A stretch of DNA of 40,827 bases, from positions 1 to 40,827 of the forward strand of contig CAXNAA020000009.1 of assembly GCA_964200075.2 (NCBI GenBank), written 5' to 3'. Position numbers and translations under genes: made by a program. Positions 8,623-32,800 of this stretch are shown here, in pieces. Below the pieces are notes generated by a model, which saw only the letters and a program-made list of their open reading frames with translations, was not told the origin of the DNA and did no database searches. The first letter of the stretch is position 1. Each line of letters opens with the position of its first letter. The stretch is from Sphacelaria rigidula (Eukaryota).

Positions 8623-11600
8623 CTAACTGGACATCTGACGCTGCAGTAACTCGAACCACTGCCGCAAAGCATCCGCTAAAGTCTCGGGCAGGGCTTCCAC
8701 ATGATTGAGCAAGATGTAGAAGGGGAACGGGTACTTGTCGAGGTAGCTTGACAGCATCAATTTCCCGCCCACATAGCTAGCTTCTCGCGTCTTCAGGATG
8801 GACGTGTCTCCCTCCTTATCCAGCACTGTCAAAGTCGAACGAACAAAAAGTCAAGGGGGAACGTTGCGGATGGAAACTCTTAGCCCGCACCTTCATCTTC
8901 TCATCAACCACCACGACAACAATATTACCTGGCGTGTACTCGTGCCCTCGTGAACGTCTCAGCGAAAATCAAGTCGATATATGCTCACACCAATTTCGGG
9001 ATACGTGGTCATCCTCTTCGAGCAAGACCAACACTACGGGATGAAACGCGAGTGACACGGTTTTGGGGTGCCAAGGCTCACTGAACAGCTTGAAGACAAG
9101 ATTGCTCCGGTCCGCCGCACTCCGTCATGCGATTGTGCGCCGACGACCGAATTAGCCCAAAGCTTCAAGAGTCAGCAGAAAGGAATCAGCTCACCAATCA
9201 AAACCAAAAGCTGTCCTCGCTCGTTCATCTCCCTGACTAGGGTCCGCAGACGATCCTTATTTTCCCGGTCGAATCGGCCATCTGATAGCATCAGAACCAA
9301 CTGACGGGGAGTACCCCTGGCACTCGCTCCACCCGAAGAAAAAGAAAAACTGCGTCGGGCCTCCTGCGCAATGAATTTCGTTGGGCCCGCACACGGGTTG
9401 ACGACACGCAGCTGAGAGATGCAATCATGGACTAGATGTTTCGGGTGTTACAGTGCGCCATGTAAAGCTACGTGGATAAAAACATGTTTTTTAATTCGAG
9501 TCAAGAAGGCAAGCGTATGCGCGTTTCGTGCTCACTCCATCGCCCAAAAGCGCAAATGCTCACGCCGATTTTGGGAGTTGGACTCTGAAAATATGTACAA
9601 TGCGACACCACAAAAAAATGTATGGATGGGGTGTTTCGGATCTTTTTGCGCCAGTCCTCGGAAGTCCCAGGAGGGCATGTGAGTCCCCACGACCCGGTGA
9701 CCCCGGAAAAATACCTCCTTTCACACGAAGTGACGTGATGTAACCCCCAACCCCAACCCTAATCCTAACCCTACATGCGGAAACGTTCTCAAGTCGAAGA
9801 ACTGTCGCGGACATTTGTGGATGGTGAGTACGCAAAACATGATCTCTTCGATATTGCGTCATCCTCCATTCGAAAGCGGAATGCAAGCTCAGCATTGGTC
9901 ACTGATGAACACCGCTTTTACCGTACAGCACCCACACACAGCAGATCAAACTTATCAAATCTAAGCGGAGGACACTCTAGCACAAAAGAATCGATTGGGC
10001 GCCATCAAATATTATTTGCCCTCACCTCGAGGAGGGCAACGACTCCTTCCAACATATGAGCCGTATTCGTGCGCGGCTGATCGAATGTGAATCCGCTGAC
10101 GATCTTGGCACCAGCTTGTTCGGTGAACGGCTCCCCAAACGCGTGTAGAAGATCCAGCTGCTCCCCAAACCTGACGACGAACGTAACATGTGCATGGGCC
10201 TTGAGAAAATTTGACGTCCAACACAGGAGAATATACTCTGACTGTTGACTGATCTCTGATTATTTTGCACAAAATCCCGCAAAGCACGCCCAACTTCCAA
10301 CCGTACCAATGTACACCAAAGTCTACTACTCGACAACTTGTACGACGGCGTTAGGAGCGGTCTGGCCACAAAAGTAACTGCCAGAATGCCCTGTGTTGCA
10401 CGTCCCTTATGATTCTGCTCTTGGCGAGGTTTTAGCGCCGCGTGCGCCACTGTGCACACCCAAAAGGTGAAATGCACGGCACAGCGGAGTAGTTAAACGC
10501 CGGGGTTTGTAAAGGCACACACCACAGGGGGGAAGGGGAGGAGGAGGAATTCCTCGGAACGGCAGAAGACACCTGGCTACTGCGGGTGTGATGCTCTTCT
10601 CCGTTATTTCACCTGGCGACGGCGAGTTGCCCGGCCTCGAGCTGCGTAAGGCCCGACGCTACAGTGGTCATGGCCGCCAGGGCAAGCGCTCCCGCGCCGC
10701 AGTCCGCCATAGACTGTGAATCGTCAATCGCCATCAAGATCTGGCGAAGACACGAGACATATGTAGGAGTTGAATGAAAACAACTTCACGCCGCCCACTT
10801 GTCGAGCCATGTTTGCCTAGCCAGAACTCGTGCGAACTCCAGTATCGGTTCACGACATTCTCATCGTCCGAAAGTCTACCGTTTTCGATGCATCGACGGG
10901 GGTGGGAGCGTGCAGGTTCCCAATCGCCAGGGAATATTTCCAGTATCAACCATACAAATTTCGAAGAAATTGCTGGGTCGGGTTACAGCCCTCAACCCCT
11001 TGCCCGCGAGGGTAGCTCACCTGCTGCATCGTGCTCCAAGGGTTGAAGGGGTCAGGAAGATGTTGCGATTGTACTGATACATTCCGGAGTGATCAATACT
11101 GCGGGATCAAGAAAGACCCACCCATGACGATCGGTTACAAAAACACCCCCACTCGCCGAGTAAAAAACACAGTAATTTTATACGGTGGATCGCTGGACGG
11201 ACAGGACGAAGCCTCGAGATCACTTGGCAGTTTTTTGTTCCAGCTAGCGAGGTCACGTCAACCGTAGGTTGAGTTAGCTCGCCGGTCAAAGCCCCTGGAG
11301 AAGGTCAGGGTTTTCATCATCGGCTTCGCTCTGCGCATAACGAGTACCCCCGCAGAATTCCTCACAGTCAACGATATCATCGGTTAGAGAGAAGCCAACA
11401 CGACTTTCGTCTGCACACAAAAAAAATCACAACAACCATATACTCCCCCCGCAATAGTGTAGCTGCAATAGAAATGTATCGAAAAACTGTAATTGGCATT
11501 AGGCTGTACTTCACGCAGTACTCTACTGCAACTGTTGAGCATGTCTTATCCAGTATGAAAAGTACCGAGAGGATTGTTCCAACCAGTCGGGCACAGCCGC

Positions 11601-11855
11601 GTGTCTTCACCTGATAGTCTCTTTTAGCAGGTTTCGTCCTCCTTAGCCATATCTTATCCTTCCGGAATCCTGATGCGATATAGGGGATCACCCTTCGCAT
11701 GTTGATCCGTTTGCCAGAACGGTAGTCACCCTGAAGCTTGGTGGCCACCATGGGCTCCAAGACCAGCCTCAGTTGCTCGCACAGCCTCTGAGAAAGACCG
11801 GCGGTCACGCCTCGCAATTTGCCCCATAGCTCGGCTGGAAGCACGGCCCCCGCGT
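8623..11855 (-). CDS. MDN1: Midasin C-terminal MIDAS (vWA-like) domain exons
   Basis: Exons 11611-11855, 10613-10740 (ILMAIDDSQSM, DxSxS motif), 10026-10170 (FTFDQPRTNT), 9195-9363 (LMLSDGRF) and 8623-8825 (YPFPFY...RQWFELL..., stop TAG). Confidence 0.94.
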
Positions 11856-14800
11856 CTGGACAGAGGGACGAAGCAAAGTTCGGTCGACTTTCTCTCACAT
11901 ACATCATCTGGTGAAACGCGAATACGCCGGCATCACATGCCGCATTAAGGCGATCAAGCAATGACCCGACACTTCTTGCAAGTTTCGATAAAAGTAGGAT
12001 TCGCGCAGCTACTCTGACCGTCTCACCAGGTATGCCAGCCTCTTCGTCCACCTCGGCATCACGCCTCCTGCGCTGCAATTCCTCGGCGAGATCATGAAGT
12101 TGCTCTCGCAACGCTTGAGCATCATTGACGTTGCTTGCCTCACCATGAATATCGGCACTCGTCACGATTTGTGGCTGATTCGGATTCGTTCGTTCATCCG
12201 CGTTGTCCAGTAACTTCAGATCTACCGGGGGCTGTTTCTCCACTGTGCTGTCATCTTCATCGGCTTCCACCATTTCCACATCTGCATCTTGCTCTGTTTC
12301 TGGTCACGTTAACCGTTGAGAGAGGATCGAATAGCGTGGAAAAATGCAACTGTCAACGTGCACACATGTATCCGAGACGGATCACGAATGGCAGCGACAA
12401 CAACGAGACCAAAAAAGCTTCACGACGCGCTTTCTTCGTTCTCCTCCCAACCGATGGCACCCACCTTGCTCGTGTCCATCCTCTTCGCGTTTTTTGCCAG
12501 ACTTGCGATTCTTGTCTCCGCGTTGAGCGTGTTCACCTTCTTCACCGTCAGCATCGCTGACCGCACCCTGGAGAAGAGAATATTCGCGGTCACAGAAATC
12601 ATGATTTTCCTACTGGAGAACTAGATGCGTACCAAGAACACGCTAATGGTGAAGCTATTTGTCAATCTCATGGACGAAATACTTCATCTTCAGTAAGTGT
12701 ACCGCCTACAGACAGATCCGTTGTCTACTGCCTTAAAAGCATAGGTCTACTGTATGCAAAGGGTGCTGAATGCACTCCATTCCCACATTTGGTTTCTCGT
12801 GAATAATAAGAATGAAAACATGCACAGCAGTTCATTTCATCGCCGCACAACCTCATACCTCCATGGAATCACACGCCAAAACCCGTCAATCGGATATACA
12901 GCCACGCACACACCTTTTGGTCTTCACCCTCGTCCAAACCATCCTTCGCATCGGCGGCATCAGCATCATCATCCGATTCTTCTGTCCCTTGAACGATAGC
13001 TTGGTCGATTTCCTTCTTTTCTCCTTCATCAGCGGCTTGACTGGCCGCAGTCTCAGCAGCTTGCTCTTCTGACACCCCCCCAAGGACCTGCACGAGGACG
13101 AAGAGTTAAAAAGGGGGGGGGGGGGGGCGAAATGAAATCACCATGCGGTCAGATCCCATTCCACTCAACCAGCTGACATACCTTCAGCCGACGAGTTACG
13201 GCATCACCACCACAGGATTCATGACCGATACAGGGTAGTCGACCAGCGGTGCGATGCTCCAAAAAAATCGTCGGACCGCCTCGTGTTGAGAGGAACGTGC
13301 GAAGGCCCAAGACGCTGATAAGCCCCATGATATCGTTTGGTGCCGTTGGGTTTTCCAGTTACAGCATCATCACACCTGACTGGAGCCTTCTTCATTGCTG
13401 GTCACGTACTCGAACTTTCCGTCATCTTTATCCCCCGATTCCTCATCGCCACGCTCGGTGTCTTCATCTCCGTCCAGGTCTTCATCTGTTCATGTCAGCA
13501 AGAGGGTATAGCTTTTGACACAATTCATCACGTATCGTACTGCTTGCTCTGTCGCCAACGAGTGAAGGCCATGACAATAAGCGCATCTTCAACCAGGTCA
13601 ACCAGCTCCCCGGGTGATACTGTGGATGAGCACTATCCGTTTGGAATCCGTTTGGAACCATGTGCGGCCGTCGGCGGGCGAGTCACCTGAACATGTGAAC
13701 CCACCGCGAGTATCCGCACCTCCAAATGTTAGTACTAACCTCCGGTGTTGTCCTTGAGCATATCCAGCCGCCTGTGCCAATGCTTCATCACATCGCCCGG
13801 GTTCCTGTAAACCACATCAAAATGCCGCAACGATGATACAGAGGAATATATTTACCGTTGGAGAGAGATAGTGGGTCATGTTTTGAACGGGACGTCAATT
13901 TCATTCGAAAAAAGCATGCGTAGCCCAGATAGACTACGTTCGCTGTGTGAGGGTCAAGGAGGACAAGGGCAGGTTTTATACTTTGTTGAGATGTTGACGG
14001 CGTTCGACCCGCCGAGTACACACAGGCGGTGTGACCACTCGCCCTTTCACACGGCGGTTCCTATATTTACCGACACACGGCGGTTCATCTTCGCAGGTCA
14101 TGGCAGACGAACGCGCCAATGGTTTGGCGGAACTCTGTGGCAGATAGACCTGCGGTATTGCTGATCCACGCAGAAAATCGCGGTCGTCTGTACTGCAGAA
14201 CCTAAAAAATCGGCACTGAACAAATATGTGAATTCGAAACAAAATAGGTGCCCGAATCCGACGGCAAAACACATGATCAACGACGGAATCGATAACGTGA
14301 TAATATTCAATATTTCCGTTATCTTTCGGCTTACATCGACGATTACACACAATTCTGCACTCAGCTGTGCAAACCATTCCCGTTTTTCACATACTAACCT
14401 GAAGGGATTGGGTGCTTCCGGACGCCGTCTTTTGTCTTTGCCGTGTCCCTCGCCCGTTCCATTGCCTCCTGACTCATCCCTCCGCCACTCCCCTCCATCC
14501 CCTTCTTCTCCCTTCCCCCCCCCGCCCCCATCATCGGCACCTTGCGCGGCACTGCCGCCACCAGGCTTGGGGAGTAAACGCGACGCGACGACGGGGTGGA
14601 AAAATAGCCGTTAGATGACGAAACTACAAACACACCCATCAAAACAGTTTTCCCGATATATTTCGAAAAAAAATACAACACAACGCAAAAGCTGGTTGTG
14701 ACAACATGTTGACAGCGTTCGACCCGCCGAGTACACACAGGCGGTGTGACCACTCGTCCATTCACACGGCGGTTCCTATATTTACTGGCACCCTTTGCTC

Positions 14801-17800
14801 TTCGCAGGTCATGGCAGACGAACGCGCCAATGGTTTGGCGGAACTCTGTGGCAGATAGCCCTGCGGGGAATAAAGAACAACTCAAAAATACCCGTTTGCG
14901 CTTCACGACAGCATCCTCACCCTGCAGTTATCAAGATTCAGATTTCACTCACCTCGGTATTTTTCCCGTCGTCTTCTCTGGCGTCCTCATCGTCCCCGTC
15001 GTTGTCTTCAGCCATCTATATTGAAAAAGAACAGCACCGAAGAAGAGCGTTCAATTTCAAGATACCTGCAACATTACGATGTAGAATCCCAACAACTTTC
15101 TTGCAGGTATCTTGTCACCCTTGTCGGCAAACGATGCGGTTATGACCGAATCCCCCCCAAAGAACTTTCACCAGCACGTGTGACGTTTGTCGCACACAGG
15201 AGACACCAGATGTTGACAGCGTTCGACCCGCCGAGTACACACAGGCGGTGTGACCACTCGCCCTTTCACACGGCGGTTCCTATATTTACTGACACTCTTT
15301 GCTCTTCGCAGGTCATGGCAGACGAACGCGCCAATGGTTTGGCGGAACTCTGTGGCAGATAGACCTGCGGGATATCCAACTTCACTATATATTGAGTCCT
15401 CAACTGCCTTGACGTTTTTCCACATATACTTTTCACAAATGAACGTAACACAAAGCTCGAAACGCGACGGATTACTCGATGTAGCGCTGATTGCACGCGG
15501 CGAATACACAACGAACGCAATCTCTCACCTCATCCTTCGAAGCATCCATCGTCACCCGAGCGTCGCCGTCGTCTCCCTCAACTCCAAAAGCAGGTGGTTC
15601 GTCCTTCCCATTTTCCACCTGATCCTCCACCTTCTCGGTTTCATCGCCTTCGTCCTTATCTTCACCACCATCAGCGTCGGCGCCCTCTTCGTCGACAGGG
15701 TCCACTTCTGGTGCTCCCGGATTCCCAGCTCCCTAATATAACGGCATGGTACGGACCAAAGTTAGTAAAACCTGAAACGCGATTTGGTTGTGGGTCATCT
15801 CCTCATGACCCATGACGGGCTAATCTGGGCTGTGTAATACCATCGCTCGGTTCAAGAAGACAACAATGTACAGCGCACAACCATGAGTAACCAGGGACGT
15901 TACACATCAGAAAGATCGTTTCGTGTTCAAGCCAAGCTAGACTAGTGATGTCACGGTGGGCACTATGGCCCAACGCTTGATACGATGTTACTTGTAGCGA
16001 CAGTTCCCTGATGAAAACGTCTCGCTGGTGACCTCTACTCCACCACCTATCGTCTGAAATAAAAGGGATTGTTGACAGCCTTCGACCCGCCGAGTACACA
16101 CAGGCAGTGTGACCACTCGCCTTTTCACACGGCGGTTCCTATATTTACTGATACCCTTTGCTCTTCGCAGGTCATGGCAGACGAACGCGCCAATGGTTTG
16201 GCGGAACTCTGTGGCAGATAGACCTGCGGGATAATTCCTTTTCACATCACGACTACTTCCCCCATGAGGGTTAGGGTTAGATAACCCATGAAACGACGAC
16301 TGTACGAAGGGAGGGATCACGACGCGAGACTGGGTAGATTGGATTGATCGTCATTAGCACCATGTCCGTGATATCCGAGCATGGTACAACCTTGGCCAAA
16401 CAAACCCAATACATCAAAACTACGCACTCTGCATTATATTCGTAATCACGTTACGAGATGTACAATGCGTACTATATTGACTTTTGTGGTATATCCACGG
16501 CCCCGGTGGCTCAGTTGGTAACCAAGTAACCTTTTGACGGTCGAGTAGTGGGGTTCAATTCCCGGAGCGATCTGGGATTTTCTCTACACCATGCCCAACA
16601 GTGGAGAGCGACCATGTCGTGGGTACACAAAATTCGACTCTACGGTCGACGAGGGAAAGCGGTTGTTGAACCGCAGGCACCGCAGGAGTAAGGTGGGGTA
16701 ATAAAAAAAAACACAGTGAAGTTCCTGTGTCGACCTTCCTTCTGTGTCAACCCAGCTAATGCGTCCACATATACCGAAAGATGTAGACTTTGTCTAGAAT
16801 AGATGAAACGTCAACACAGAGACCCGATACAAAAACCACAAGACGGTGAAACGCTAGGGCAAATCCAGGGTGCATATCCCGCAACGTTTCCTCATTACAA
16901 TTTCACCCCGAACAGACTGTGCCACGCGGCGGGGCAGGTAACATAATATGCGGAACGTATCATACCTCAGGCTGATTTTCATCTTGCCCGAGTTCGGGAG
17001 TTTCCGCAGCTTCATCTTCGGGCGCCAGAGTCTCGAAGCCCTCTTTCTCCTTGCCCTCCTCATCTCCATCACCACCTTCGCTGCCCCCGTCATCGTCCTT
17101 GCCCTCCTCCGCTCCTCCTCCTTCATCTCCGTCTTCATCCTGATTTCGGACCATGATCACATCAGCACATTTTCATGATTTGGCGTAAAGAGTACAGTTA
17201 CTGAAATCGATCTCCCCTCCCCCAAGTACAAACGCACGAACACACATACACCGATGGGCGCGTCTGTCTTTCCCTACAAACATGGCGTAAGAGTTGCATC
17301 GTGCGGGGCACTTCAGCGTCTGTTCACGTTTTGAGCCTCGTCCAGGTTGAGATCGTCGGGGAGCTCTTCCGGGTTGTCTTCGCCAGCAGGGTCCTTGTCT
17401 TCATCGTCCAATTGGCCTTCATCAACTTTCATTGCCTCTTCCTCACCTCGCACCTGAAATGGACATACGACGGAGAGTGAGAGTGTTTTCGCCTCAACGA
17501 GACTCTGTCGGTAAGGGTCGCGATTTGTCGTGAAGAGATGAAGTCAGAAAGCTGGGGGAATACATACTTATTTGACCATTGATCACACATCCCCTTCGAG
17601 ACAGAGGGGACACGGGGGGAAATGGGGATGAACGGACCTCCGCTCAGTGTGTAACACGTACATGACACGCTGACGGTGGTACCCTTTTCCAACATGTTGA
17701 CAGCGTTCGACCCGCCGAGTACACACAGGCGGTGTGACCACTCGCCCTTTCACACGGCGGTTCCTATATTTACTGACACCCTTTGCTCTTCGCAGGTCAT

Positions 17801-20800
17801 GGCAGACGAACGCGCCAATGGTTTGGCGGAACTCTGTGGCAGATAGACCTGCGGTGACTAATTTGACACGCATCCTCAAAAATGTTCTTTGCTTTCGCCG
17901 TAAAAAATCATGGGTGCACCAATTGAATAAGTTACAACACACGATTGAACGATTGACAATCGCACGTTGGCCAAATGAAGTTGAAGCTCACCTCTACGCC
18001 CATGGGCTTGTCCTCGTAGTTCTCCTCCAGGTCATCATTCACCAATCCTTCCTTCTCGCCGTCATCCCCATCTTCATGCTCATCATCAGCGTTTTCTTGG
18101 TCAACCCCATCATCACCCATGTTCCCCTCGGGCTTTCCATCAGCCTCATCTTCGCCCTTGTCCTCTTCTTTTCCTCCATCCTGTTTTCGATCACGCACAG
18201 AGTAACGCCCTTCAACACAATGGCTCGAGCAAATTTGTTCTCTTTCGATTTCACATGATGGCATCTCCCGACGTGTAAATTCAAGTTCGTCACATCACGA
18301 GCCAATAATGTCAGGGTATGATATGGCTTGCGACCAAATGTTATGTGGTCTAACCCGACCTTTTCCTTGCCCTCTCCGTCTTCATCATCGTCGTGACCAT
18401 CCTCCTTCGTGCGAATCTCGTCTTCTTCTGGCTTTTCTCCGTCTAGCCGAGACCTGACCATACACGGACACGAGACGGAGGGAATGAAGACGTGAGAAGT
18501 GCCTGTTGCGCCACTCATTCCATGTCACGTGACACATCCATCTTAACTGACTCCATAAAACCGGGGTCATCACACGCGTCTTGGACCGGCCATGATAAAC
18601 GAACATGCTTACCCTGCTTCGAACTTCTCCTCCTGCTCATCCTTTCCTTCCTCCTGCCCATCGTCGTCATCATCCCAGAGTTTCTCATCGACCACGTCGG
18701 CATTATCGCCCAGGTCATCACCCATCTCCCGATCAAGCTCCTCCTTATCTTCAGCTTCTTCTTCTCCCTCATCGTTTTGGTCACCCTTCCACATGTTGCG
18801 CATGACAAACGGGAGGGAGGCAGGTGTCAAAACTCTCTCCCTCGCGCGAAAGAAACATATTTTCCACTGTCATCTCTCGTCTCATCGACTGACAAAACAG
18901 TTTTGCCGTACGAAACGCGGTGGATCTGTAACACGGCATACTGACTGCGCGAATACCTTTCTCCTTCAAAACGCCTACACACCCAGAAGAGATCACTGAC
19001 CTTGGGAACATCAAACATATCCCCCTCGAAATCGTTTTCCATTTCCATACCCTTGTCCTGCTCGTCCTCGCCTGTGGACGGAAACGGAGATGGGACACAC
19101 GTCGAAGAGGGCGTCAGGATGATTGCAACAGCGGCTGCACACACGGAGTTGTACCGCGAGCTCTTCCTTAGCTTCATCTTTCGATTCCAACATCCTCACC
19201 GAGTTCTTTGACTTCCTCGGCTTGATCTTTATCCGGCTCATCGCCCTTGAGACCCAGCAGTTGTTCTTCGTCCTCGATCTGATCTGTGACGTCCTTCTTC
19301 CCATCTCCCTCACCCATTCCTGTCCCCTCAACATCATCGTCAAACTGTGGAGTGGCGCAGGCATGACATGGAATGCAACACGAGCGATACTGTCGAACTC
19401 ATTTCGAAAAAATGCGCACACCCGACACTTGATGAAGTGAACACCACGCGGTGCGGAGCTGACCCAAACTCGCGTCAAGTAACATGCAGTAAAGTCTCGC
19501 CTCTTATTTTCCAGATACGAAATACGTCGGTAGGGAGCATATTCGGAGAAATAAGACGAATGACGTGGATGATGATCCGGATCAGTGATGTGTCGTGTAT
19601 TAGCCCACAACAGATCACGGGACCCCAGATTCTCAAAGAGAGAATGTTCCATGATAATCCGCTTATTGCGGAATATCCCTCCTTGTCGAAATCGAACTTC
19701 ATGCAGCCCAGGTGGACGTGTCATCAACATCACTAGCTTCAAGTGCAATCAGTCAGTCCACATCACACGAACCTTCATCCCTTCAATGTCGCCCTCTCCG
19801 TCCCCCTCCATCTCTTCCGTTTCATCGGAGCACAGTCCCTTCGAAAGCAAAAGTCGGAAAACTCTAAGAGTGACGTAGTGCAGCTTGGCCGTTCCCTGAA
19901 AAAAAGTGCAACACGACAGTGAGAGTTAGGAGAAGCGTGACAGCATTTTGTACGTGAGCAATGCAACACCCCCGTGTTCCTATCGACAGAAGCAGAACGT
20001 CGAGCCCTTTCCCTACCGCTTTTCGTTGTAGTGTGCCATCATTAGGTACGCGACGGGGTATTGACGAATCGCAACATCGACACCAGAGATTCTAACCTTG
20101 TTGAAAGCAACGATCCCTGTCAGCACCGCTCGTCCAGCACCCAACACTTGCTCGGCCAACGGCAGAACGTCACGCAGCAGCGTCACCGCAGCGACCGTCG
20201 CCTCGGCGGCAGGCGCCGCTCCGTCCGCCCATCCAGTAGCAGTCACGGCTTCCGAGAACTCCACCATGCATGTTCTGACCGATCTCAGCGCGTCCGCGCA
20301 ACGCCAGAGTTTGAGCGATCTGGCTTGCTCGAAGGAAGATGCGTGTGTTTCCATCAAGGTCGTACCAGTGACCGACAGTCCTTCGTCTGCACCGTCGCTG
20401 TCGGAGTCAGTAGTCCTCTCTGGCAATAGGACCTCACCGTCGGCTGTAGTGTCCGATTTTCCATCTTCAACAGATGACGGACGGGGGCCTCGGCAGAGCG
20501 ATTGCACCGAAATCAGCATCGATTTCACGGCGAAGTTTATTTTTTTTCCGAACTGCCTCATGTGATCAACCGTCGCTGATTGCGCCGCGTCGAGAGCAAT
20601 CAAGTCAATGGCCGGTGAGGACGATTGCAAAGGTTGAGTCGAAGACATCGCTCGCACCTCCGATTCCGAAAACCGGGTTGAACCTGGCTGCATGACCCAC
20701 CAGAAACGAAGTACGGGGTCAGAGTTCAGGCACGTGCGGACGGTGTCGATGATGCACGACAGGTGGTCGCCAACACGCTGTAGAGCGGCGACAGGTATAA

Positions 20801-23800
20801 CGTTCGAGAATTTCCGAGAAATTGCGCGCGTTTCTGTTGCGAGGCATGCGAGTGACTCTTGATTCTCCAACACCGCAGCGACGGCTCCAGCAGCCAGGAG
20901 GGGCACCGCCACGTCCGATGAAGATTCGTCTTTGGTCGAGGTTGACATTGGAGGGGCCGGGAACTGATCGAGGCGGGCGAGCATGACGGATGTCTTTTGC
21001 TCCAAGTCGGACACGGCAGCCGTCGCCTCTGTCGAAGAGGCCGAATCAGTAGGGTTTTGACCCCAACCTTGAGAAAAAAAAGGCGGGAAGCAAAATAAAC
21101 GACAATTCAAGGGAAAAAAGCAGGGCGAAGACCGTCAGGGTTACATAGCTGGGAAAAGGGTTCAAAAAAATTCATCACTTTAATCCAGAAGTACCGAGGG
21201 CGTGACCCTTCCATACCGCGGACTCCCTATACAGCATTTCGCACCATCTCATCAGCGAAGTAAAAATCACATGCTGCCTTCAGATTTAGTTGCTACAGCC
21301 CATAGAACATGGGACCGCGGCCGGTAGCTCGTATCCTCGACGTCACGGCATACATGCCGCAACTCACCAGTTCCATTCGGCGTGACGGGCGTCGAAGGTG
21401 AGGGAGGATCGGCTTCCGCCATGGCTTTCACCAGCAGCTGGACCTCCCGGACCGATTCGACAGATCTCCGCAGACCCTGCCGTTGGGCCTCCACGGCCCG
21501 CCTCAGTGACCTCTGGGCCGGTAACGGTTTTTTAGTCGAAGCCGCCGCAGGAAACGCGGCGTTTTCGTCCACGGCCATCGAATCAACTGGATACGAGGGC
21601 TCCTCCTTGCCACCACCGATGGAATAGTCTCGGACAAGTGAACGGAGGGCGTTGATTTCTCGCGCAAACCTCGATATTTCCCTCTCGAGAGCAACAGCCG
21701 TTCCCCGCTGTTGCAAGATTACAAGGCCCAGATGTTCCGACAGACCTTTCATCACCTGTTACAGTAGGAGTCAAGACATGCCAAGTCGAGTACAGTAGGA
21801 GTCAAGACATGCCAAGTCGAGGAAAAGTGGTGCCCACGCGCTCGACCTAAATGGCGTCGAGTTGATATAATGTTGGACAAGAAGACATACCCAGATTTAT
21901 CGAAAATCAAGTTACGGGGTAGGGTTACATACCACCAGCGATCGACAGCCAGATTTGGGTGAAACGTTGAGTACAGCGAGCGCAGCACCGGCACCCGCGA
22001 CATTTCTAGTGAGGGGGAGCGACACATGTTGATGAAAGAAACACGGAGAAGCAAGCTGTGCCGACTACGAGATGGAGCGACGTACTCATTAGACCACGGG
22101 GAATACCACCTGGCAGACCACGTCCCGCACCATGTCCCAAGCATTTGTGACTGACCACAGCGTTACCAAGTATGCCCAGCCCATACCACTCGTTTTTGTA
22201 CCTCTGCTTCCCTCCTTGATAGATCCCTTGCCACGGGTGCTCCGGCCTCTAGTCTCAGTCGGGATAGCTCGCTCAAACTCTTGAAAAAGTATCGCTCCCC
22301 ACGATGCAATATATCGCGCACCGCCGACGCCGCACCGGGCGTGGGAGCATGGCCCTCAATTACGCTGTTGTCCAAGAGCCACGACGGCTCTGTCCCGGCG
22401 AGTTGGTCAGCGGCGAACGGCTGTGGGATGGCCATGACGTGAAGCATGTCCGACGCTTCCCCTGGTGTGAAGGACTTGGCGTGCTTCAGACCCTGCTTAC
22501 GCATTCCCACCAAAAGGTCAAGAACGGCCCGCTTCTTCACCTGCACAGAGACGCGTTTGTTCGGGTGAGTAATGTGCGCCTCCGAGGACAGCAACGCGTT
22601 TCTTTTACAGCCTTGCCTGTTGCGTTTCGGCATCGTTTTTTTTTCCGATGTCGAATGGAACCGCAATATTCTCACGAGGGTAGGTGAGCTGCTCATTCGG
22701 CATGAGTAGATTGACTACGCGCACGGCGTTTCAACGCCAAAACACGATTTTGAACCAACCGTGCTACACGCATCTGCGTTGTACAAGTAACGTGGAGCAC
22801 TACTACTAGAGCTAGTGGGAGGTGCACGAACGGAACACACCACAGGCAGGCTCCTGAGAGAACACGATCGTCCGAGAACATGACATGGTCCGCAATGCTT
22901 CTCGAGCTCACGAGAGGTGCACGGACGCGATACAAGATCGAATGGCTGCGCAAACCATGATCCCGACAACTGCCAATGCACACACCTGTTTGCCGATGGT
23001 GGTGGCTCGCAACGCCTGTATTCTCCCGAAAACGGCAAGACACAACTCTTCCGCTAGTCCTGCCCCCAGAAACCCGACCGGCCTACCACCGTCCGTCCAC
23101 CGGCCGTTTCGCGTCCATCTTGCCGACTTCTTGGCGTACACGCTCTCGCGCAATAACGAGCGCATGCGTTTCTTCAGCATGGACAACCGGGCCGTCAGCG
23201 AGCCAACTTTGTTGGTATTGCCGTCGGAACCTGTAGAGCTGTCGGCAAGTAAAGCCACCTTCAGCCAAGGTGACCACCCAATGCTCCTGGGATCGGTGAC
23301 TATTTCTCTCGTTGAGTGTAAAAGTTGCGGCTCCTTGGGAAGGCACACGTCCAGCAACTGTAACGACGTTCGCGATGCGTGACAAGGCCTAGCGGAACGG
23401 GATTTAGCTTCCGGTTTCTGCAACTCTTTTTCCATGGGCTCCCGTGCCTCAACGACGACACCGTGAATCATTACTGTATCGTCGGCAACGTTCCGTTCCG
23501 CTTCATCAGAATCAGCATCCGCTTCGACAAAATCAGCCGAGCTGTCCACCTGTCGCCGTCGTATACAGGAACGGGGGGCGCAACAATCACGGCCAAGAGT
23601 GCCTACATTGAGGCTGAGCCGAGTGGCATGTACCCAGGCCAAGAAGACCTCGCGCGTCATTCATCACCGACAATTTTGTTCACCGTAGCAACAAGCGAGG
23701 GTTCACTCTACAGTTCGTCGATATCTTTCCTACGTCGGCGTAGACCTATCGACATCTCGTAGTGGGAGAGTGTAATGGCATGACATCGAGCACAAAGCAA

Positions 23801-26800
23801 AGGTCTCACCTTCTTCACCATGGCAAACATGGAACCAACACTGGGGATCTCTGTGCACGGTGCGGCTCTCTTTGCCCCCGCGTCATTTCTTTCCCCGACA
23901 CCAGCGGTGAATACACGGTTCAGCACCTCTGACACCGATACCTGCAGCAGCCCAAATCGACAATAGCACAAGGGGAAAGCGCTCGTGGTGTGAAGACATG
24001 AGAAATATCTCCAACCCGGTCACATGAGAGTGTTTCATTTTGGCACACGTTTGTGGCTTCATCTTTCACAAACATAACCTGCGAATATTAGCATGGGGAA
24101 CACACACACCTACTTGCTCGAATATTCTCCACGACAAGAGCGATTGGATACAACCCCACTCCCAGGAAGTAGCAGCCGCGCCAACAGTCCACGTGTTCCG
24201 GAAGAGATCACCGGCTTCAATATTGCCTCGTGACACAACCTAGGGTGAGATCTCGTGACAATTCGCTAGCGAGTACCGTTGTACAGAAGATGTTGACAGC
24301 GTTCGACCCGCCGAGTACAGACTAGGCAGTGTGACCACTCGCCCTTTCACACGGCGGTTCCTATATTTACTGACATCCTTCGCTCTTCGCAGGTCATGGC
24401 AGACGAACACACCAATGGTTTGGCAGAACTCTGTGGCAGATAGACCTGCGTGGAATGCTATATAAAAAGGATTTCAAGAGTCTGCAGGCCTCGGTCCAGT
24501 ACAGAACCACTTCGAAAATGACCCCTCACCTCCAGCACCTCATCGTACTGAGACACAAGTTTGCAAAGCTTCCGGTGCGACTTCTCGGATGCCTCCGCCA
24601 GCGAGTAATACGTTTGCTCATCCCACCTGTTCAGCAACACAGTAACATCGATACTGCTCGTCAACACGAAAGCAATCTTGCCACATTTTCCCTGTACAGA
24701 AAATCCGCCCACGAGTTGATCTGATCACACGCAATGCTTTGAAGGAACGGACCTCCCATCGGGATTGGCTGTAGTTGACGATGACGCTTTGGATCGTCAC
24801 TGCGTTGGACAGTCAACCAAGTGACCGTTTTTTTGCGCTTTGAAGTGACCTTTTTTTTGCGCATTCAATCGAGATCACTTACACACAAGGGTTCATCAGC
24901 AATCCGGTTTTCCAGTAATGCAACAGCTCATGATTGATACTCACTTCGCCAGTTTGACCTCCTCCTTCAGCTTTTTCTCGATGCTATTCCGGACTAAATC
25001 CCTCGAGCTCATCACGTCGTCGGAGAACTGCAGAACGAGCGTGAATCAGGGTATACGGCTAGTTAAGTTGTGCCCATTCCAAAGGATAAGACAGACATGT
25101 TCACCCTCAGAACAGCTACCCTACATACTCACTTTTATAAAAATTCGGACATTTTCGCTAAGCCGACGTTTCAGCGTGAGGAGCGGGATCCAGCGCACCT
25201 GAGAGTAGAACCGCCATATCCCTTGCACGACAACAGCCACGGTGGTGGATTGGGGATGTTCCTCGGCCACGGCACAGATGTGAGCAGCGAACGCTTGGAG
25301 CATCTGCAACCTAGCCATGAACTCACCGACGCTCGAAGTTCGAATAAAGTCGTCCAACGCCTGAAACAGAACTGCGGAGGACAACGGACGGGGTGGTCGT
25401 TACATCCTACAAGAAAATACTGAACACGACTTCACCTACTGATCTTTCGAGTTTTCCGTCAGCGAGGCGCGCGAGATATTCCGTCTCGCAAAAGCAAGTG
25501 AAGGGATTTTGCAGCGTCGACGAATCTCGTACTGGTGGATGATGACATACAAGCTCATGTCACGAATGTGCTCTGTGTGAGGGTTTGTTCTCCATAAGAA
25601 GGAATTCCTCATGAGGACCTTTTCCAGATGTTTTTGAACAAGTAAACCGATTTTCATCATCGCACATGATGACATATATGAGCAACAAAACGTAGTGTGG
25701 TGCAAGCCACTCGAGCAGGGCATATGCACATGGTGTTCGTCCTCGAAGTCAACGTACTCACTTCTGATGCGCGCAAAGCCGGCGGGATCGAAACCGGACA
25801 AACCGCCCTTGGCAGCTTCTCGCCTCGTGAATTGCCGGTCCTCGGGAACAAGCCCATGCCACACCCAATCGGCAAACGACTCCTTTGCAGTCGGCCAGTC
25901 AGGGACCGACAAGACCTTGGTGGGAGACTCCTCTGCTTCATGATCGCCAGTCGTGGAAGCCTCCACCAGAGAATCTTGATCCGCCTCCCCTAGCCATTTT
26001 CCATCGAGGAGTCGAAACAAGTGTAACCACCACCGGCTTCCCTGCACACCCGATAGCATGATTAAAACATGGTACGGGATTTTGCGTCGCGAACTAAACC
26101 CCATAATTTCTCGAGCTTCCCCCAACTTAGCGTGAAATGTAGTTAATACCAAACTCATCTTCGCGCACGCGGGCTCACTCGGGGTATTGAAGCGTCCCAT
26201 TTAATGTTACCGTCACCCACGTTGACTTCGAAAGAATTCCAATTAGGTGACCAGGTCAGCTACGAACCAAATGTGATCCCGGCGTCGAATATCACCTTCG
26301 TCACGGATGCTCGCTCTCGGCCATCAAGCAATTGCGGCCAGCCCTTCAACTCGATGCCCCTCCACCGCACAACAAGAGCGCTCAAAGGTCCAAGCTCCTC
26401 CTTCAGGCTAACACCGCGATGAGCGTTCTGTTCCCAGTCTTGCGCCTTTCGTAACGTGAGTTCCACCCCGGCAAGCACAGCAGCCAGCGGAGAATGGAGC
26501 GGCATCCGACGAACACGATCTGCTACTCTAGCTAGCTGTAGTCGGAGCATACACCAACAGAGTGTGCAACAAATTGCGATATATGAAGATCAACACTGTG
26601 CAACGAGACCAAAAGCGTGTGCAACGAGCACTGCGGACATTCCAATATCGAGTTCGAGTAATAAAACCTGACTGAAACTGCAAGGTTCGAATCCCAACGC
26701 TAACCCTGATAGCAAAGCAGACGAAAGGTCCACCTCCGCCCGTCATGATGATCCTTCCCAATACGCGGTAAAAAATATACTTTGCATTTCGAAAAATATA

Positions 26801-29800
26801 GTTAGCAACCGAACTCGCATCTTGAGCAGCGACAAAAAGATCCATCCGCACCTGAATAAGAATGCCGTGCCCAGGGAATTCCTCCAGTAAGTTGGCAGCA
26901 CGTCGCAACAAGGCCGTTAGAGGGCGGTCCGTCAAACGTGTCTCCCTGACGTTGGGATCTCGGTGGAAATCGACGTGAGAATCCACGAACTCGTAAGACC
27001 GGCCCGAAACACCCTCCTCTTTCACGGGCGTCCCCCTCATCATAGATTTCCGAGTGAAGTCGGCACACATTTTCGTCGCTGAAGCATCCCACAACAGTGT
27101 CGTTCCAGACTTGCACATGCGGGCCGCATCTGAAATCGCCAACATGTGCGCCGGTGCAAACGCCGCCTCAAGGTCCAAAAACTTCCCGCGGATATTCGCA
27201 TCCTTACCGACATCATCGGGCCTAGACACTAGTCGCGGGACACAAGCCGGGGCACTTGCGGTGGGTCCCGCCAGAAGAACCGCTGCGCGGTAAGAATCGC
27301 CGAACGCCATTACTCGAGCCGGTATCAAAGAATTCGAGACATCATCGCCGGCTGTGGGCGCGGCGTAGTGCACGCTCAAGCGCCGCAAGGCTATTCGCTT
27401 GCGAACTGCAAGGGACAAAAGCAGGCGCGCATGGCACGCTACGAGGGAGGACAGCTGTTCGTCGGAGAGATGCCTTAGGGCGTGTGGCTGCGTGCAATCT
27501 TCAGACGGTTCTTGTGCGGCGACTGAATCGGCCGCTATAGCGTCAGCTGTAGAGTCGTCAGATTCGGCCGTGAGAATGTCCTTGAATCTGCTGTGGTAGT
27601 CTGGGAAGAGCATGCGAAGTCGCTTCTCGTCGACAGCTTCTGCTGACTGTACCTGTTTTGTACGCGGTGTTGAGGGACGGTATCATGCTTGTCGTGACGT
27701 CACTCATGGACCCTTGGAGACGCACGGTGAAAAACGTTCCGATGGCTACGCAGTACTGTTATTTCTGTACTGAGCTTTTGATGCAGCCCCGTTATACAGT
27801 GTACACGTGGGGTACCGTCATACAATCCACGAATTCGTGGCGGACGTCAGCAGGAGACCTTCTTCGAACGGTGTATCTGCACTGCTGACACCAAGGTAAG
27901 AGAACATGGCAACTCATGCCCTGATTTGGGGTAAATGAAGTGCCCGAGTCATGCACAACATCACCCAGGACCTTCAAAGCATACTGTCCTCTGAGAGTTG
28001 GAGCTCAAAAATTCGAGGAGGGGTGTATGTCCCACGTGGTTTCATGAACAGCAGCATCAGCTGTTACCGCCGAAACTACGACATGTAGGCGTCTCGATGT
28101 TCCAAAGAAGCCATCAGGGAAAAAATTAGAGTATTGAGCTGAAAGTCCTCACCAAGGTAGGATAGCTTTCTTTCATCACCTGGCACTCGGAACATCTCGA
28201 CGCGTTCGTACCTTGCGAACTACTGTGAAATATCATAAGAATACGGCAGCAACTGCTCGCGAGTCACGAGCTACCTCCTGGTGAAAAATACTGGTTTTAC
28301 ACGGACGAGGGCACGTTTCCGTCAGTAAAAAATTAGAGTGTTTTAGAAGCTTGATACGTCCTCACGGCGATAGGACAGCTTTTTTTCTTCATTCGGAATG
28401 CCCTCGCGGAGCCGAGACGAGTGTCGCGTCAGTCGTCCACGCGTTTACACATCTCGACGACAGGTATGGAAATCGTACAGCGGTGGCCTCTGGGAAAAGC
28501 TACATACCACGTGCTCCTGCATCTTGTACTTGATGATTTCGGCCTCCGTCTCCTCCTTCTCCGCCTTTTCCGCTTCTGCCTCGGACCACGCTGTCACTGC
28601 TGCGCCCATTGCTTTTAGGGCGCAGTCCACCGCCGGCGCCTCCAGAGATCCCGATAGGAGAAGGATCTCGGCCCGTGAGAGGACAGCCTTTTCAAATCAT
28701 CATGAGCACACGGGAAGATATGTCTTCAAGCCGTGCAATTGTTCACAGACAGATCATGTACAACCCTCAACTTCACAGTACCAAGGACAGTCGATTACGT
28801 CAGTATAGTTTTCCAAACGCACAGCTTCATCGGTGCCGAAAACACTTCACGAGACAGATGCACTCCTCCCTCTCAAATACAAAATGTGCGAACTCCGACG
28901 TCTGGGATACGACTGGCCTTCCGAAAACGCAGAAAACTTCCATATGCCAGATAGCGAGGAGGCGCAGCGTCCATTTTGGATATCTTAATCTAGCTCAAGC
29001 ATAGGAGGACCATCACGCAGTGTCCGCAGAGTGATCCAGGCCAGGGGCCGTTCGAGCAGGAGCAAAGGAATTCAGAACCGAGGGGTTAAAAAGACCAGGA
29101 TGCCACAAATGCTGAGCCCGCATTCATGACTCCGCTGTTGATATGAGACGAAGTACCACACCTTGTTCGAACACCCGCCACTGCACACACCTGTAGCAGA
29201 GCCATATGCTGGGCGCCCGATCCTCCTCGGCCATTTGGAACTCGATAAGTTAGTGCGAAATTGAGTTCCTCGCCCAAGGAGTCGCCATCGTCTTCTCGAT
29301 CGTGCCGCGCAGTGTTGACAGTCGGACGCTCGCACGCAGGGTACGGGTACCGTAGAAGGAAGCTCTGCAGACGGATCAAAGAATCGCAACTGGTAGGTAC
29401 TGCACCTGTGGAAGGTTGGCATGCCGAGACGGGAGGAGATCGTGGGTTTGGGGCGATGCTGCATTGCAACCTGCACGCACCTCCAACACAGTTCATGAAC
29501 ACAGCTCGTACAAATCAAAATTTCGATGCTTTGACGCGACCAGCGAAAAGTGCGACGAACAGTAAAAGGTCGACAGTTTTCGAGACTCCATAACAACCCG
29601 ATGCAACCCAAGAATGTAGACAATTATCAACATGTGTTCCAGAACACATCTGAGTCGGTCAAGTTTGCCGCTAGCACAAGCAAACGAAAAAAAAAGATAG
29701 AAGCCTGAAAGTGCATCATCCGCACGCCCCGAACCTACCGGGCTGTCGTGCAGATTCTTCCGCAGATGATTTCCCAAGGGCATTTGTTGCACAAGCAGCA

Positions 29801-32800
29801 GCAAGCAGGCGCAGTCCCAATCGACACGTCTCAATCGCATCGCAGAGACCCGTCATCACGTCCGGGTAGGCTTCCATGTACTCCGTTCGCATCCGCTCTA
29901 GAAATGATCCGGCCGCCTCTTGCCACACAACTTCCTCTTCGAGAGCAGCTGATCTTGACTTGGCCGCCTTCGCGCTACTGCCTGTTTCCGATCGCGATTG
30001 GTGCAAGCCTTCCTGAGGAGGGTCTGCGACACCAGCGAGACTGCTCAGGTTGTGAGCGAGAGACGACACGCGTTCGGGGTTCCCAACTCCTCTGGCGAAG
30101 GCGTGAACGTCACGGAAGAGAGTTTGGAACGCCGGGCGATCCGCAGCACGCTCGATAGACTCAGACCCGAGACGACGACACTCTTCACGGAGACGCCTGG
30201 CTTGCTGCAGTAGGGGCTCCATCTGAATACGTCATACAACAGGTGTAACCGGTTGCAGAATTTGTGAACGAAAAAGCTCACGAATTTGGCAAGCCTACAA
30301 TTTGGTGGAAACGACCCGGGAAGACGAAATAAAACTGTCGCCGACAGGGCTGGAAAAAACACGCTGTGAAACGACCAAAATGTTCCAAAACAGATTCGGA
30401 GTCCACACCACGTTGTGCATTGCGGCGTGAAGCAACGAATGTTTGGTTCATCCCGCGGTGGCGCCGTACAATCAGCGTCCACCTAGGTGATTTTGCAAAA
30501 CTGCGAACCGACCAAGGAGAATGTTTTCCCGCCAGGTACGAGGCCCGAGGGCAAAGTTAGCGGGACTCCAACGTGGTGACGTGTTTGCTGAAACAGTTCT
30601 ACAGTTCGACAGAGGGCAACGTTTTCTCACCCCTGGTGGAACATCTTCACCACCCTCCAACCTCGATAACCACCGCCATGCTGTAAGGTCACTCTTTACT
30701 GTTGCCAGTCTCCGTTCCAACAATTTCTTCTCCAGCGATGGCTTCATTCCGGGGTCAACAGGGGACGACGGCAGCAACAACATCAACCTCAAGCAGCCGA
30801 GGAGGGTGATACCGAGCCCGGTTAACGCTTGCGCTGACTCAACCTCATCACATAAAGAGGAACCGACCACCTTCGACGCGTAACACATGGCTCGTGCACA
30901 CGGCACGATCAACGTGTCCCCAAGGTCCGTCAATCGGTTGTCTCTGCATGAACTCAAAGCTTTCCGCGCCTCCACCTCGAACTCGTCCGGATCTCTGCAA
31001 ACGCGACTGGCGGTGGTTCGGGGTGGATCGCCTCTCTCTCGAGGACTCATAAACGCTCTGCTGAACGATGGTACGCCTTCAGCAGCGGGGGACGCTTCAT
31101 CGAACGAGCACAGTGTTTCGTACAGACGACACCAGGCAAGGCTTAGCACTTTCTCCAGCACTTCCTCCGACGCAGATTCAAGGTCACGCAAGAGCCGCAT
31201 CGCGGTCCGAAATTGTGCCATTCTGGTGGACACGTTCATTAGTGTCAAGTCGACCACCTCTCGCCGTTGCGCCCCTCTTGCTCGGGCCGTATCCGAGGTC
31301 AACTTGTCCTGCAAAACAGATGAAGACGACAGTCGTAGCAGAAAAGCTGATCGCACAAGCGTCAAGAGTTGAGCGGGTCCACCACCCCACGAGGTGTCGT
31401 CAGGATGATCCCGTCGCTTGGAGCCGGTCACGCCGGGAAAGACAATATCATCACCGTCCTGAACCATTCGAGGGGGACCCAGTTCAGTCAAAATGGTGCC
31501 TGGTGATTGAAAGAGGTTGTCCCACAGACGTTGCCCCCACGCATCGAGGGCAACTGGAAGTATCTTCTTCAACATGGCCCTCAACCCCGACGCTGAGAGG
31601 TTATTTTCCCATGCCCAGATTAGAGTCTGGTAGGGTCGGGCAACAGCTGGAGACAACGTCGGGGTGGCGAGAAGAGCCGACCTCAGTCGTACAATGCGCG
31701 GCATGAGCGGCGCGGCGCGGTTGAGATCCGAAAAAGTCTCTTGGTTCTCCAGTGACAGTTGGGAGAGTGCTGCTAGCACCTTGCACTCTTCCGCAACAAT
31801 CCAATGCTCCATGAACGACGCAAGCTGTACGGCTGCCCAGCGGCGCAGAACATTCTCACCTTCACGGTCATCATCAGCGTGGTCAGACACAACCAGCAAC
31901 GTCGAATTGGCCACGGCCTCTTGCGCCTCCGTCTCAAAATCGTCGAATCTTCGTGTGTCTTGCACGCCATGATCCTCCTGCGCGGGCTCGTTTTTGCTGA
32001 CGTCCACATCATAACGTGTACCCTTGTGGGCCTTGGTGAACCGCGCTTGCGCGGTCCTCACCACCTCTTCAAGGACTTGAGGCAGACTTTCCGCAAGAGC
32101 AACGGTGGTGGCAGGGCCGTCTCTCCCGTTTCTTTCCACTCCCTCGTCGGCCGGATCAGTTCGAAGGGTCGAATCTCCGATGTCCTCGACTTCGCTCGAT
32201 GCCGCCCACTGCAGGGTGCACAGGGCATGCAATAGTTCTCTCTTAGCGTCGTCGGGGACACACAACGAAGGATGCGCCGATTCCAAAAGACTTCCCAACG
32301 TGGAAATCCCACTTGACGCGTGAGGTCTGTATGACACTCGAAATTCGGAAGCAAGACGATGAAGTCGACCGAGAGCACACGCTGCTGCACCGGTCGTGGG
32401 AGCGGCTGCGCGCGCACCATGCGCCCAAAGCGAGTCCGAGGCGAGCGAGGAGCCCCCCGCATGCTGCACGACGGCTGCTTCTATACGAGATCGGACAGCC
32501 TCGAAATTGGCACAAGTCGATGACACTCCCGACAGCTCAGAAACAGCCGGCGGCGACACACTACGAAGAACCGCCGTACGTTCACAGACCCAGCTCCACG
32601 AGACCAAGAACAGGTCCCAAGGGAACACCAATAGTACCGCGCCCGCTGAGGCATCAGGCTCAGCTTGGTTGGCACTTGTCGTGGCAAGAACATGAGACAG
32701 CGAGTCCCTCGCGTGGTAGACACCCGCAAGGGCAGAGTGAAACTCATCCGCCGCCTTCTCCCCCAGAGTCGTAACTATGTCAACAACTTGCCGACAGAGG

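Follow-up and report, generated by a model that had tools for sequence, protein, structure and literature searches.

In a 40,827-base stretch of Sphacelaria rigidula DNA (GenBank assembly GCA_964200075.2, contig CAXNAA020000009.1, positions 1 to 40,827 of the forward strand, termed the window hereafter), introns of a gene for midasin carry six copies of a short element that we regard, with considerable confidence, as a box H/ACA guide RNA gene encoded within introns, the six copies being paralogues, and as a functional counterpart of the small nucleolar RNA (snoRNA) known as snR34 in yeast and U65 in human. The analysis shows the six copies, their strand and intronic position, their boxes and fold, and a match of each of the two guide pockets to ribosomal RNA (rRNA). 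It is because both pockets match the pair of large subunit (LSU) rRNA sites assigned to snR34/U65 that the RNA can be called a functional counterpart of these guides.

A repeat search of positions 13000-25500 returned one repeat family with six members, and blastn across the whole window with copy 3 as query found exactly six copies, all on the minus strand, with 94.0-99.4% identity to copy 3 over 160-167 nt; beyond these six, the next best matches in the window reached only 10-16 nt (E 0.77 or worse). In order of coordinates, these are c1 (13989..14155, 167 nt up to the third nucleotide past the terminal ACA), c2 (14704..14866), c3 (15208..15370), c4 (16067..16229) and c5 (17692..17854), each of these last four being 163 nt long, and c6 (24288..24451, 164 nt), so that the element measures 163-167 nt. 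The six starts given by the original prediction (13989, 14704, 15208, 16067, 17692 and 24288) were all recovered, and each corresponds on the plus strand exactly to the third nucleotide past ACA. When the copies are aligned on the minus strand, the shared sequence begins at CCGCAGG and ends 1-3 nt past the terminal ACA. Outside these limits, global alignment of the 60-nt flanks gave 27-39 identities out of 60, a level taken as that of chance without a shuffle control, at which the flanks of the six copies would be unrelated to each other. The length differences come from a 4-nt insertion in the hinge of c1 and a 1-nt insertion in c6. In viral contigs, a 25-nt segment of the element had no match.

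The host gene was recognized from a 1372-residue open frame (30475-34590, minus strand) that matches midasins, those of Ectocarpus best and those of other brown algae next. Searching with two Ectocarpus midasins by tblastn placed minus-strand exons between 39856 and 8629, the best conserved of which are up to 97.7% identical; this MDN1/Rea1-type AAA ATPase gene therefore has an aligned extent of 8629..39856 (minus strand), which corresponds to residues 263-4763 of the Ectocarpus protein P0001. The intron structure was read from four of 11 public sequencing runs, all of them available as contigs, which were placed on 13000-25500, namely X6, X7 and X8, which are RNA by our guess, and X4, from another study, which is DNA by our guess; the statements below concern the 15 of 65 splice joints and the 40 of 155 other-letter differences that were listed. 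Joints with CT..AC ends, which are GT..AG on the minus strand, were found in all three RNA-type runs, and none of these joints was present in the X4 contigs on the same stretch. They delimit, always on the minus strand and with cuts at GT..AG, introns 13805-14398 (holding c1), 14566-14952 (c2), 15016-15528 (c3), 15733-16965 (c4), 17140-17327 (without any copy) and 17454-17991 (c5). The joint of the c6 intron is not among the 15 of 65 listed, and we infer an intron at about 24009-24529 from the tblastn exons 24527-24634 and 23807-24007 and from the GT and AG present in the sequence. The introns with c1-c5 fall within the part of the gene that encodes the acidic D/E-rich linker, where the spliced frame stays open.

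The spliced contigs of the RNA-type runs therefore bear out what had been claimed of the arrangement: all six copies lie on the minus strand, which is the midasin coding strand, there is one copy per intron (by spliced joints for c1-c5 and by the deduced intron for c6), and the four copies said to occupy consecutive introns are c1-c4. No second snoRNA was detected in the copy-bearing introns, the window holding no Rfam snoRNA match at the gathering score. One X6 contig (385 nt, depth 7.67) runs from exon through intron into the 3' part of c5 and is taken to be either DNA or a precursor not yet spliced. The bins 13834-14250, 15085-15501 and 15919-16335, which contain c1, c3 and c4, had no cover in X6 and X8 and a cover of about 1 in X7, values that are uninformative on expression. 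A literature search for MDN1 as a host gene of snoRNAs yielded no paper.

RNAalifold folding of the six copies produced a consensus with the succession typical of this RNA class: a hairpin, an AGAGCA hinge, a second hairpin and an ACA near the 3' end. The consensus comprises 47 predicted base pairs, of which 39 are invariant, four have changed on one side but are still paired, three are broken in one copy each, and one is compensatory, this sole compensatory stem change being an A-U to G-C replacement in c1. For five of the six copies the two-hairpin form is also their own minimum-free-energy fold. The motifs initially noted were conserved to different degrees. The stem CGCAGGUC/GACCUGCG is intact in five copies and carries one mismatch in c2, in the basal stem of hairpin 1, and box ACA is kept in all six. 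The hinge motif AGAGCA was found as such in four copies (c2-c5), being replaced by AGAUGA in c1, which still fits the ANANNA consensus, and by AGAGCG in c6, which breaks it; box H thus fits ANANNA in five of six copies.

The spacing of the two pockets was examined on c5, the copy nearest to all others. The tops of the pockets stand at position 52 for box H at 66 and at position 144 for ACA at 158, that is 14 nt from their boxes in both hairpins, as the original prediction had stated for the two internal loops; a distance of about 14-16 nt is characteristic of box H/ACA snoRNAs. On the minus strand, hairpin 1 offers a 5' guide arm CUGCCAC (17836..17842, positions 13-19), which pairs with rRNA GUGGCAG on the 3' side of the target UU, and a 3' guide arm GCCA (17800..17803, positions 52-55, 14 nt before box H), which pairs with rRNA UGGC on the 5' side of the target U. 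It is followed in the hinge by box H, AGAGCA (17784..17789, positions 66-71). Hairpin 2 offers a 5' guide arm AUAGGAA (17761..17767, positions 88-94), pairing with rRNA UUCCUAU, and a 3' guide arm GUCGA (17707..17711, positions 144-148, 14 nt before ACA), pairing with rRNA UCGGC through one G-U pair; box ACA itself occupies 17695..17697 (positions 158-160). The hinge of c1 has a peculiarity of its own: past its box H, at about 14074-14085 on the minus strand, it contains AACCGCCGTGTG, a second occurrence of the sequence that forms the 5' strand of hairpin 2's upper stem some 26 nt further on, and this small duplication could act as a competitor for pairing within c1.

Joining the sequences complementary to the four arms yields a target pattern, TGGC NN GTGGCAG, a free gap of 25-55 and TCGRC NN TTCCTAT, which was found in at least 104 stretches of a metagenome collection. 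In all 107 matches in the 104 loci listed the gap was exactly 40 nt and the segment was one and the same; in all of these 107 listed matches, moreover, both NN start with T, as a pseudouridylation target, which needs a U, must do, though the pattern did not require it. The match fell within a full Rfam LSU_rRNA_eukarya hit (3144-3180 bits) in all three loci tested. The two pockets are accordingly predicted to pair with LSU rRNA at UGGC-UU-GUGGCAG (5' pocket) and UCGGC-UC-UUCCUAU (3' pocket), and the two predicted target U's, which are 54 nt apart in LSU rRNA, align without gaps to U2457 and U2511 of Escherichia coli 23S rRNA, taken from an annotated genome.

When only the registers allowed by the structure were considered (three in hairpin 1, four in hairpin 2, with a threshold of at least 10 pairs and at most 2 G-U), these two sites were the only matches in the LSU, small subunit (SSU) and 5.8S rRNA of three ribosomal DNA (rDNA) loci; the hairpin 1 site forms 4+7 bp without any G-U and the hairpin 2 site 5+7 bp with one. 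A tighter threshold (at least 11 pairs, no more than 1 G-U), also passed by the two real sites, was applied to 300 dinucleotide shuffles of the rRNA: a site for hairpin 1 was obtained in 7, a site for hairpin 2 in 6 and both in none, figures that measure only rarity, since the three rDNA loci were selected by the pattern and hold both sites by construction. Variation among the copies spares the guide arms, with 0 of 23 positions varying there vs 21 of the 137 other positions up to ACA, although the test is a weak one (Fisher p = 0.045). The original reading of the element as a box H/ACA RNA was supported, and it is strengthened by the match of both pockets to LSU rRNA.

In yeast, snR34 is described as directing psi2826, the equivalent of E. 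coli psi2457, and deletion of snR34 together with snR52 and snR67 as abolishing psi2826 and psi2880 (PMC11121408). A second source presents snR34 as the guide for U2826 and U2880 of 25S rRNA and as a homologue of human U65 (PMC5778458), and a third assigns to SNORA65 a site close to the peptidyl transferase centre, 28S position 4417 (PMC7862062). A literature search for SNORA65 with 4373 and 4427 found no paper settling the human sites. The spacing of the yeast sites (2880-2826) is 54, the same as that of the targets predicted here, and it is because the predicted targets are the same pair of sites at the same 54-nt spacing that we attribute to the element the guide specificity of snR34/U65 (SNORA65). 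The two systems thus have in common a two-hairpin H/ACA organization in which a single RNA addresses, through two pockets, the same LSU pair, as far as the pairing prediction made here indicates, the equivalence of psi2880 with E. coli 2511 resting on our own alignment. They differ in that no sequence or covariance-model similarity to snR34/U65 was detected in the element, and in their genomic setting: snR34 is an independent gene and U65 a single intronic gene, placed in RPL12 by the original prediction, whereas here six intronic copies lie in midasin. The link to U65/snR34 drawn in the original prediction consequently stands for the guide specificity towards both sites and does not extend to the covariance models. 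As none of the six copies has an Rfam match, we claim a functional counterpart of snR34/U65 and not a proven common descent.

Several observations weigh against this interpretation. The comparison with the Rfam covariance models, to which the original prediction had looked for corroboration, was negative at every level tried: the 4227 families of Rfam 15 gave no match in the whole window at the gathering score, two weak matches at E up to 1, neither on a copy, nine weak matches on 13500-25000 at E up to 10, again none on any copy, and no match on one copy alone (186 bases) at E up to 10. The fold of copy 3 is only modestly better than that of its shuffles (z = -2.2, with 4 of 200 shuffles as stable), the minimum-free-energy fold of c2 is not the two-hairpin form, the box H of c6 is without the final A of ANANNA, and the copies are too similar to offer real covariation, one compensatory pair being all that they contain. 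In the predicted free RNA the guide arms are partly base-paired. As to the targets, an unconstrained two-part complementarity scan returned several chance sites of equal or better length and was not significant, so that complementarity by itself proves nothing. The arm lengths were chosen with LSU rRNA in mind (the 14-nt registers had been noted beforehand, in the original prediction), and the rRNA tested belongs to metagenome eukaryotes picked by the pattern and is not Sphacelaria's own.

The differences among the copies form a star around c5, from which c3 differs in one alignment column, c2 in four, c4 in five, c6 in nine and c1 in ten, four of these last being gap columns. The repertoire moreover extends beyond the window. 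In each of X6, X7 and X8 a single contig (depth 30.8, 49.2 and 48.5, respectively) was placed on c6, over 24294-24418 of the window, differing from it at ten listed places; at three of these the consensus hinge, AGAGCA included, is restored, other differences are unique, none of those listed falls in the guide arms, and the change at 24418 also occurs in X4. Because these contigs are neither c6 nor the consensus, at least one further paralogue must lie elsewhere, present in X6, X7 and X8: there is a seventh, c6-like paralogue with an intact AGAGCA elsewhere in the genome. In X4, contigs end 15-44 nt within each of the copies, which any repeat would be expected to cause, and the four bins with c1-c3 have an X4 depth of 46.9-53 vs 26-31 for most of their neighbours, values of summed depth and not of copy number.

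The copies might be snoRNA-derived repeats, that is, retroposed or converted copies of an snR34/U65-type gene, most or all of them unprocessed pseudogenes, with the working gene elsewhere. A repeat unit equal to the predicted mature RNA and devoid of a common flank would suit such an origin, as would the star-shaped differences around c5/c3, the existence of at least one further paralogue (the c6-like contigs of X6, X7 and X8), the deviant H box of c6 and the weakened stem of c2. The copies nevertheless have neither the A-rich tail nor the target-site duplication that mark mammalian snoRNA retroposons (PMC1687206). All 23 guide-arm positions and the ACA are intact in all six copies, with ANANNA retained in five, and all six are both sense and intronic, the situation in which such RNAs get processed; we therefore hold pseudogenes to be an unlikely explanation.

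That the element would be an unrelated short mobile element, such as a short interspersed nuclear element (SINE), a miniature inverted-repeat transposable element (MITE) or an introner-like element, with a chance likeness to H/ACA RNAs, appears very improbable. Both pockets fit one known double guide at registers fixed by the boxes, a coincidence that none of the 300 shuffles reproduced, there is no target-site duplication and, by eye and not by computation, no terminal inverted repeat, and the repeat ends short of the splice sites, with about 80-740 nt of unique intron on each side. A real high-copy repeat stands nearby at an X4 depth of 501,958 vs 46.9-53 for the c1-c3 bins (again depth, not copy number). 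Such an element would nonetheless account for a near-identical short repeat that is always sense and occurs once per intron, as introners do, and for the lack of an Rfam match on any copy. We give practically no weight to a third explanation, a repeated midasin exon. It could draw on the stop-free minus-strand frame that runs over each copy, in one register for five of the six by frame arithmetic, but the contigs of the three RNA-type runs splice across c1-c5, the frame across this region is open once they are spliced out, no consistent splice donor follows the element, and indels of 4 nt and 1 nt separate the copies. The coding-exon idea was rejected on the grounds that c1-c5 are spliced out and the frame is open without them. 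An intron-encoded H/ACA guide RNA gene in six paralogues therefore remains our preferred interpretation.

This interpretation places the array among systems of a known kind. Clusters of intronic H/ACA snoRNA genes within one host are described for rice, Drosophila and Chlamydomonas, one source being PMC2780460, while Huang et al. 2004 (J Mol Biol) and Chen et al. 2008 (Genetics) reportedly deal with such clusters as well, and it is on account of such reports that the array can be assigned to a known kind. The likeness lies in the presence of several snoRNA genes within introns of one host gene. The array differs from those clusters in that here there is strictly one gene per intron and all have the same guide, and also in that the host is a protein-coding 60S-assembly gene of a brown-alga-type genome. 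What is new is the organism and the host gene; the kind of RNA is already known.

Mammalian snoRNA retroposons resemble the copies in being snoRNA-sized, intronic and in sense orientation. According to Weber 2006 (PMC1687206), they have an A-rich tail together with a target-site duplication of some 14 bp, are often sense-oriented in introns and can be faithfully processed. The copies described here differ from them by the absence of both tail and duplication and by their confinement to one gene. Near-identical short repeats in intronic, sense orientation are also a property of introner elements, SINEs and MITEs. Unlike these, the repeat in midasin is internal to otherwise unique introns and does not include the splice sites, and it combines the absence of a target-site duplication with a specific guide complementarity to rRNA.

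By analogy with known H/ACA RNAs, each copy-bearing intron would be spliced from the midasin pre-mRNA, the H/ACA proteins Cbf5/dyskerin, Nop10, Nhp2 and Gar1 would assemble onto the two hairpins, and exonucleases would remove the rest of the intron, leaving a particle of about 163 nt whose 3' end lies 3 nt past ACA. That the RNA is processed in this way in Sphacelaria, is bound by these proteins and guides pseudouridylation there is an inference. Pairing of the pockets would then place, at each site, the first U left unpaired where it can be converted to pseudouridine, at two positions near the peptidyl transferase centre (U2457 and U2511 of E. coli 23S rRNA, psi2826 and psi2880 of yeast). With five or six copies in each pre-mRNA, more guide could be produced per host transcript, an effect of dosage. 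The proposal that a midasin transcript could release up to six guide RNAs has against it the deviant H box of c6 and the different fold of c2. Having six copies may make up for a modest expression of the host, which is what would be expected of it. Since midasin is an assembly factor of the 60S subunit, the output of a guide for LSU rRNA would be tied to the transcription of a gene for LSU biogenesis.

How the copies came to be spread over the introns can be approached through their limits. No target-site duplication was found at the copies, the longest word common to both flanks being 5 nt, no A run follows the third nucleotide past ACA, and no terminal inverted repeat was seen by eye at the element ends. 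As flank, duplication and A-rich tail are all missing, the repeated unit coincides with the predicted mature RNA. Candidate routes are ancient duplications whose products have stayed similar through selection and gene conversion, or copy-and-paste of an RNA-sized unit. We tentatively raise, as a possibility to which we assign a rather low probability, that the array was built by copy-and-paste of a unit of exactly mature snoRNA size among the introns of its own host, without tail, target-site duplication or flank. RNA-templated repair with, or insertion of, a processed snoRNA and gene conversion of very short tracts are candidate mechanisms. If true, snoRNAs would here have moved in a way that differs from the L1-type retroposition described in mammals. 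A repeat unit so exact and free of flank prompts one to ask by what route snoRNA genes spread between introns.

Other features of the window were noted along the way. The intron of c4 (15733-16965) is shared with an unrelated, very high-copy repeat at 16500-16660 on the plus strand. The bin 16336-16752 has a summed depth of 501,958 in X4 and of 18,800-24,290 in the RNA-type runs, and many contigs diverge at 16586 and 16659. Its first 75 nt or so (16500-16575) are tRNA-like by eye, and neither ARAGORN nor Rfam called a tRNA at 16500-16660; the repeat is probably a tRNA-derived SINE, antisense to midasin. At 21137-21210 on the minus strand, in intron 21068-21367, Rfam reported a match to snoMBII-202 with 25.7 bits vs a gathering score of 40, and the segment has GUGAUGA and CUGA 40 nt apart. 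A C/D snoRNA at this location was not supported, the score being below threshold and the longest complement to the LSU, SSU and 5.8S rRNA of one rDNA locus (L012) being 10 nt.

Over 13113-25500, X4, which is labelled as an algae metagenome, shows an intron divergence of about 1-2% from the window (for instance 74 other letters in 6241 bases), together with small indels, among them 27 nt absent at 22126 and changes in a tandem repeat of two 31-nt units at 21760-21821, and is read as a related strain or population. Its bins 17170-17586 and 17587-18003 have a summed depth of about 3000, yet a single contig of depth 33 spans 16759-17703, and the only feature found at these high-depth bins (17170-18003) is a G-rich low-complexity tract of 22 nt (17606-17627).

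In one study of Ectocarpus, snoRNAs were obtained by bulk prediction only, with ACAseeker and CDseeker (PMC4513859). The element described here adds an H/ACA guide RNA of a brown-alga-type genome to which targets are assigned. Its guide function could be read from the pockets though a curated library of covariance models misses the element, and arrays of this kind run the risk of being masked as anonymous repeats. The use of one RNA for the same two sites as in yeast and human suggests that this paired guide is either very old or arose repeatedly. If the double-guide match in a stramenopile holds, this double guide would date back to an early eukaryotic ancestor.

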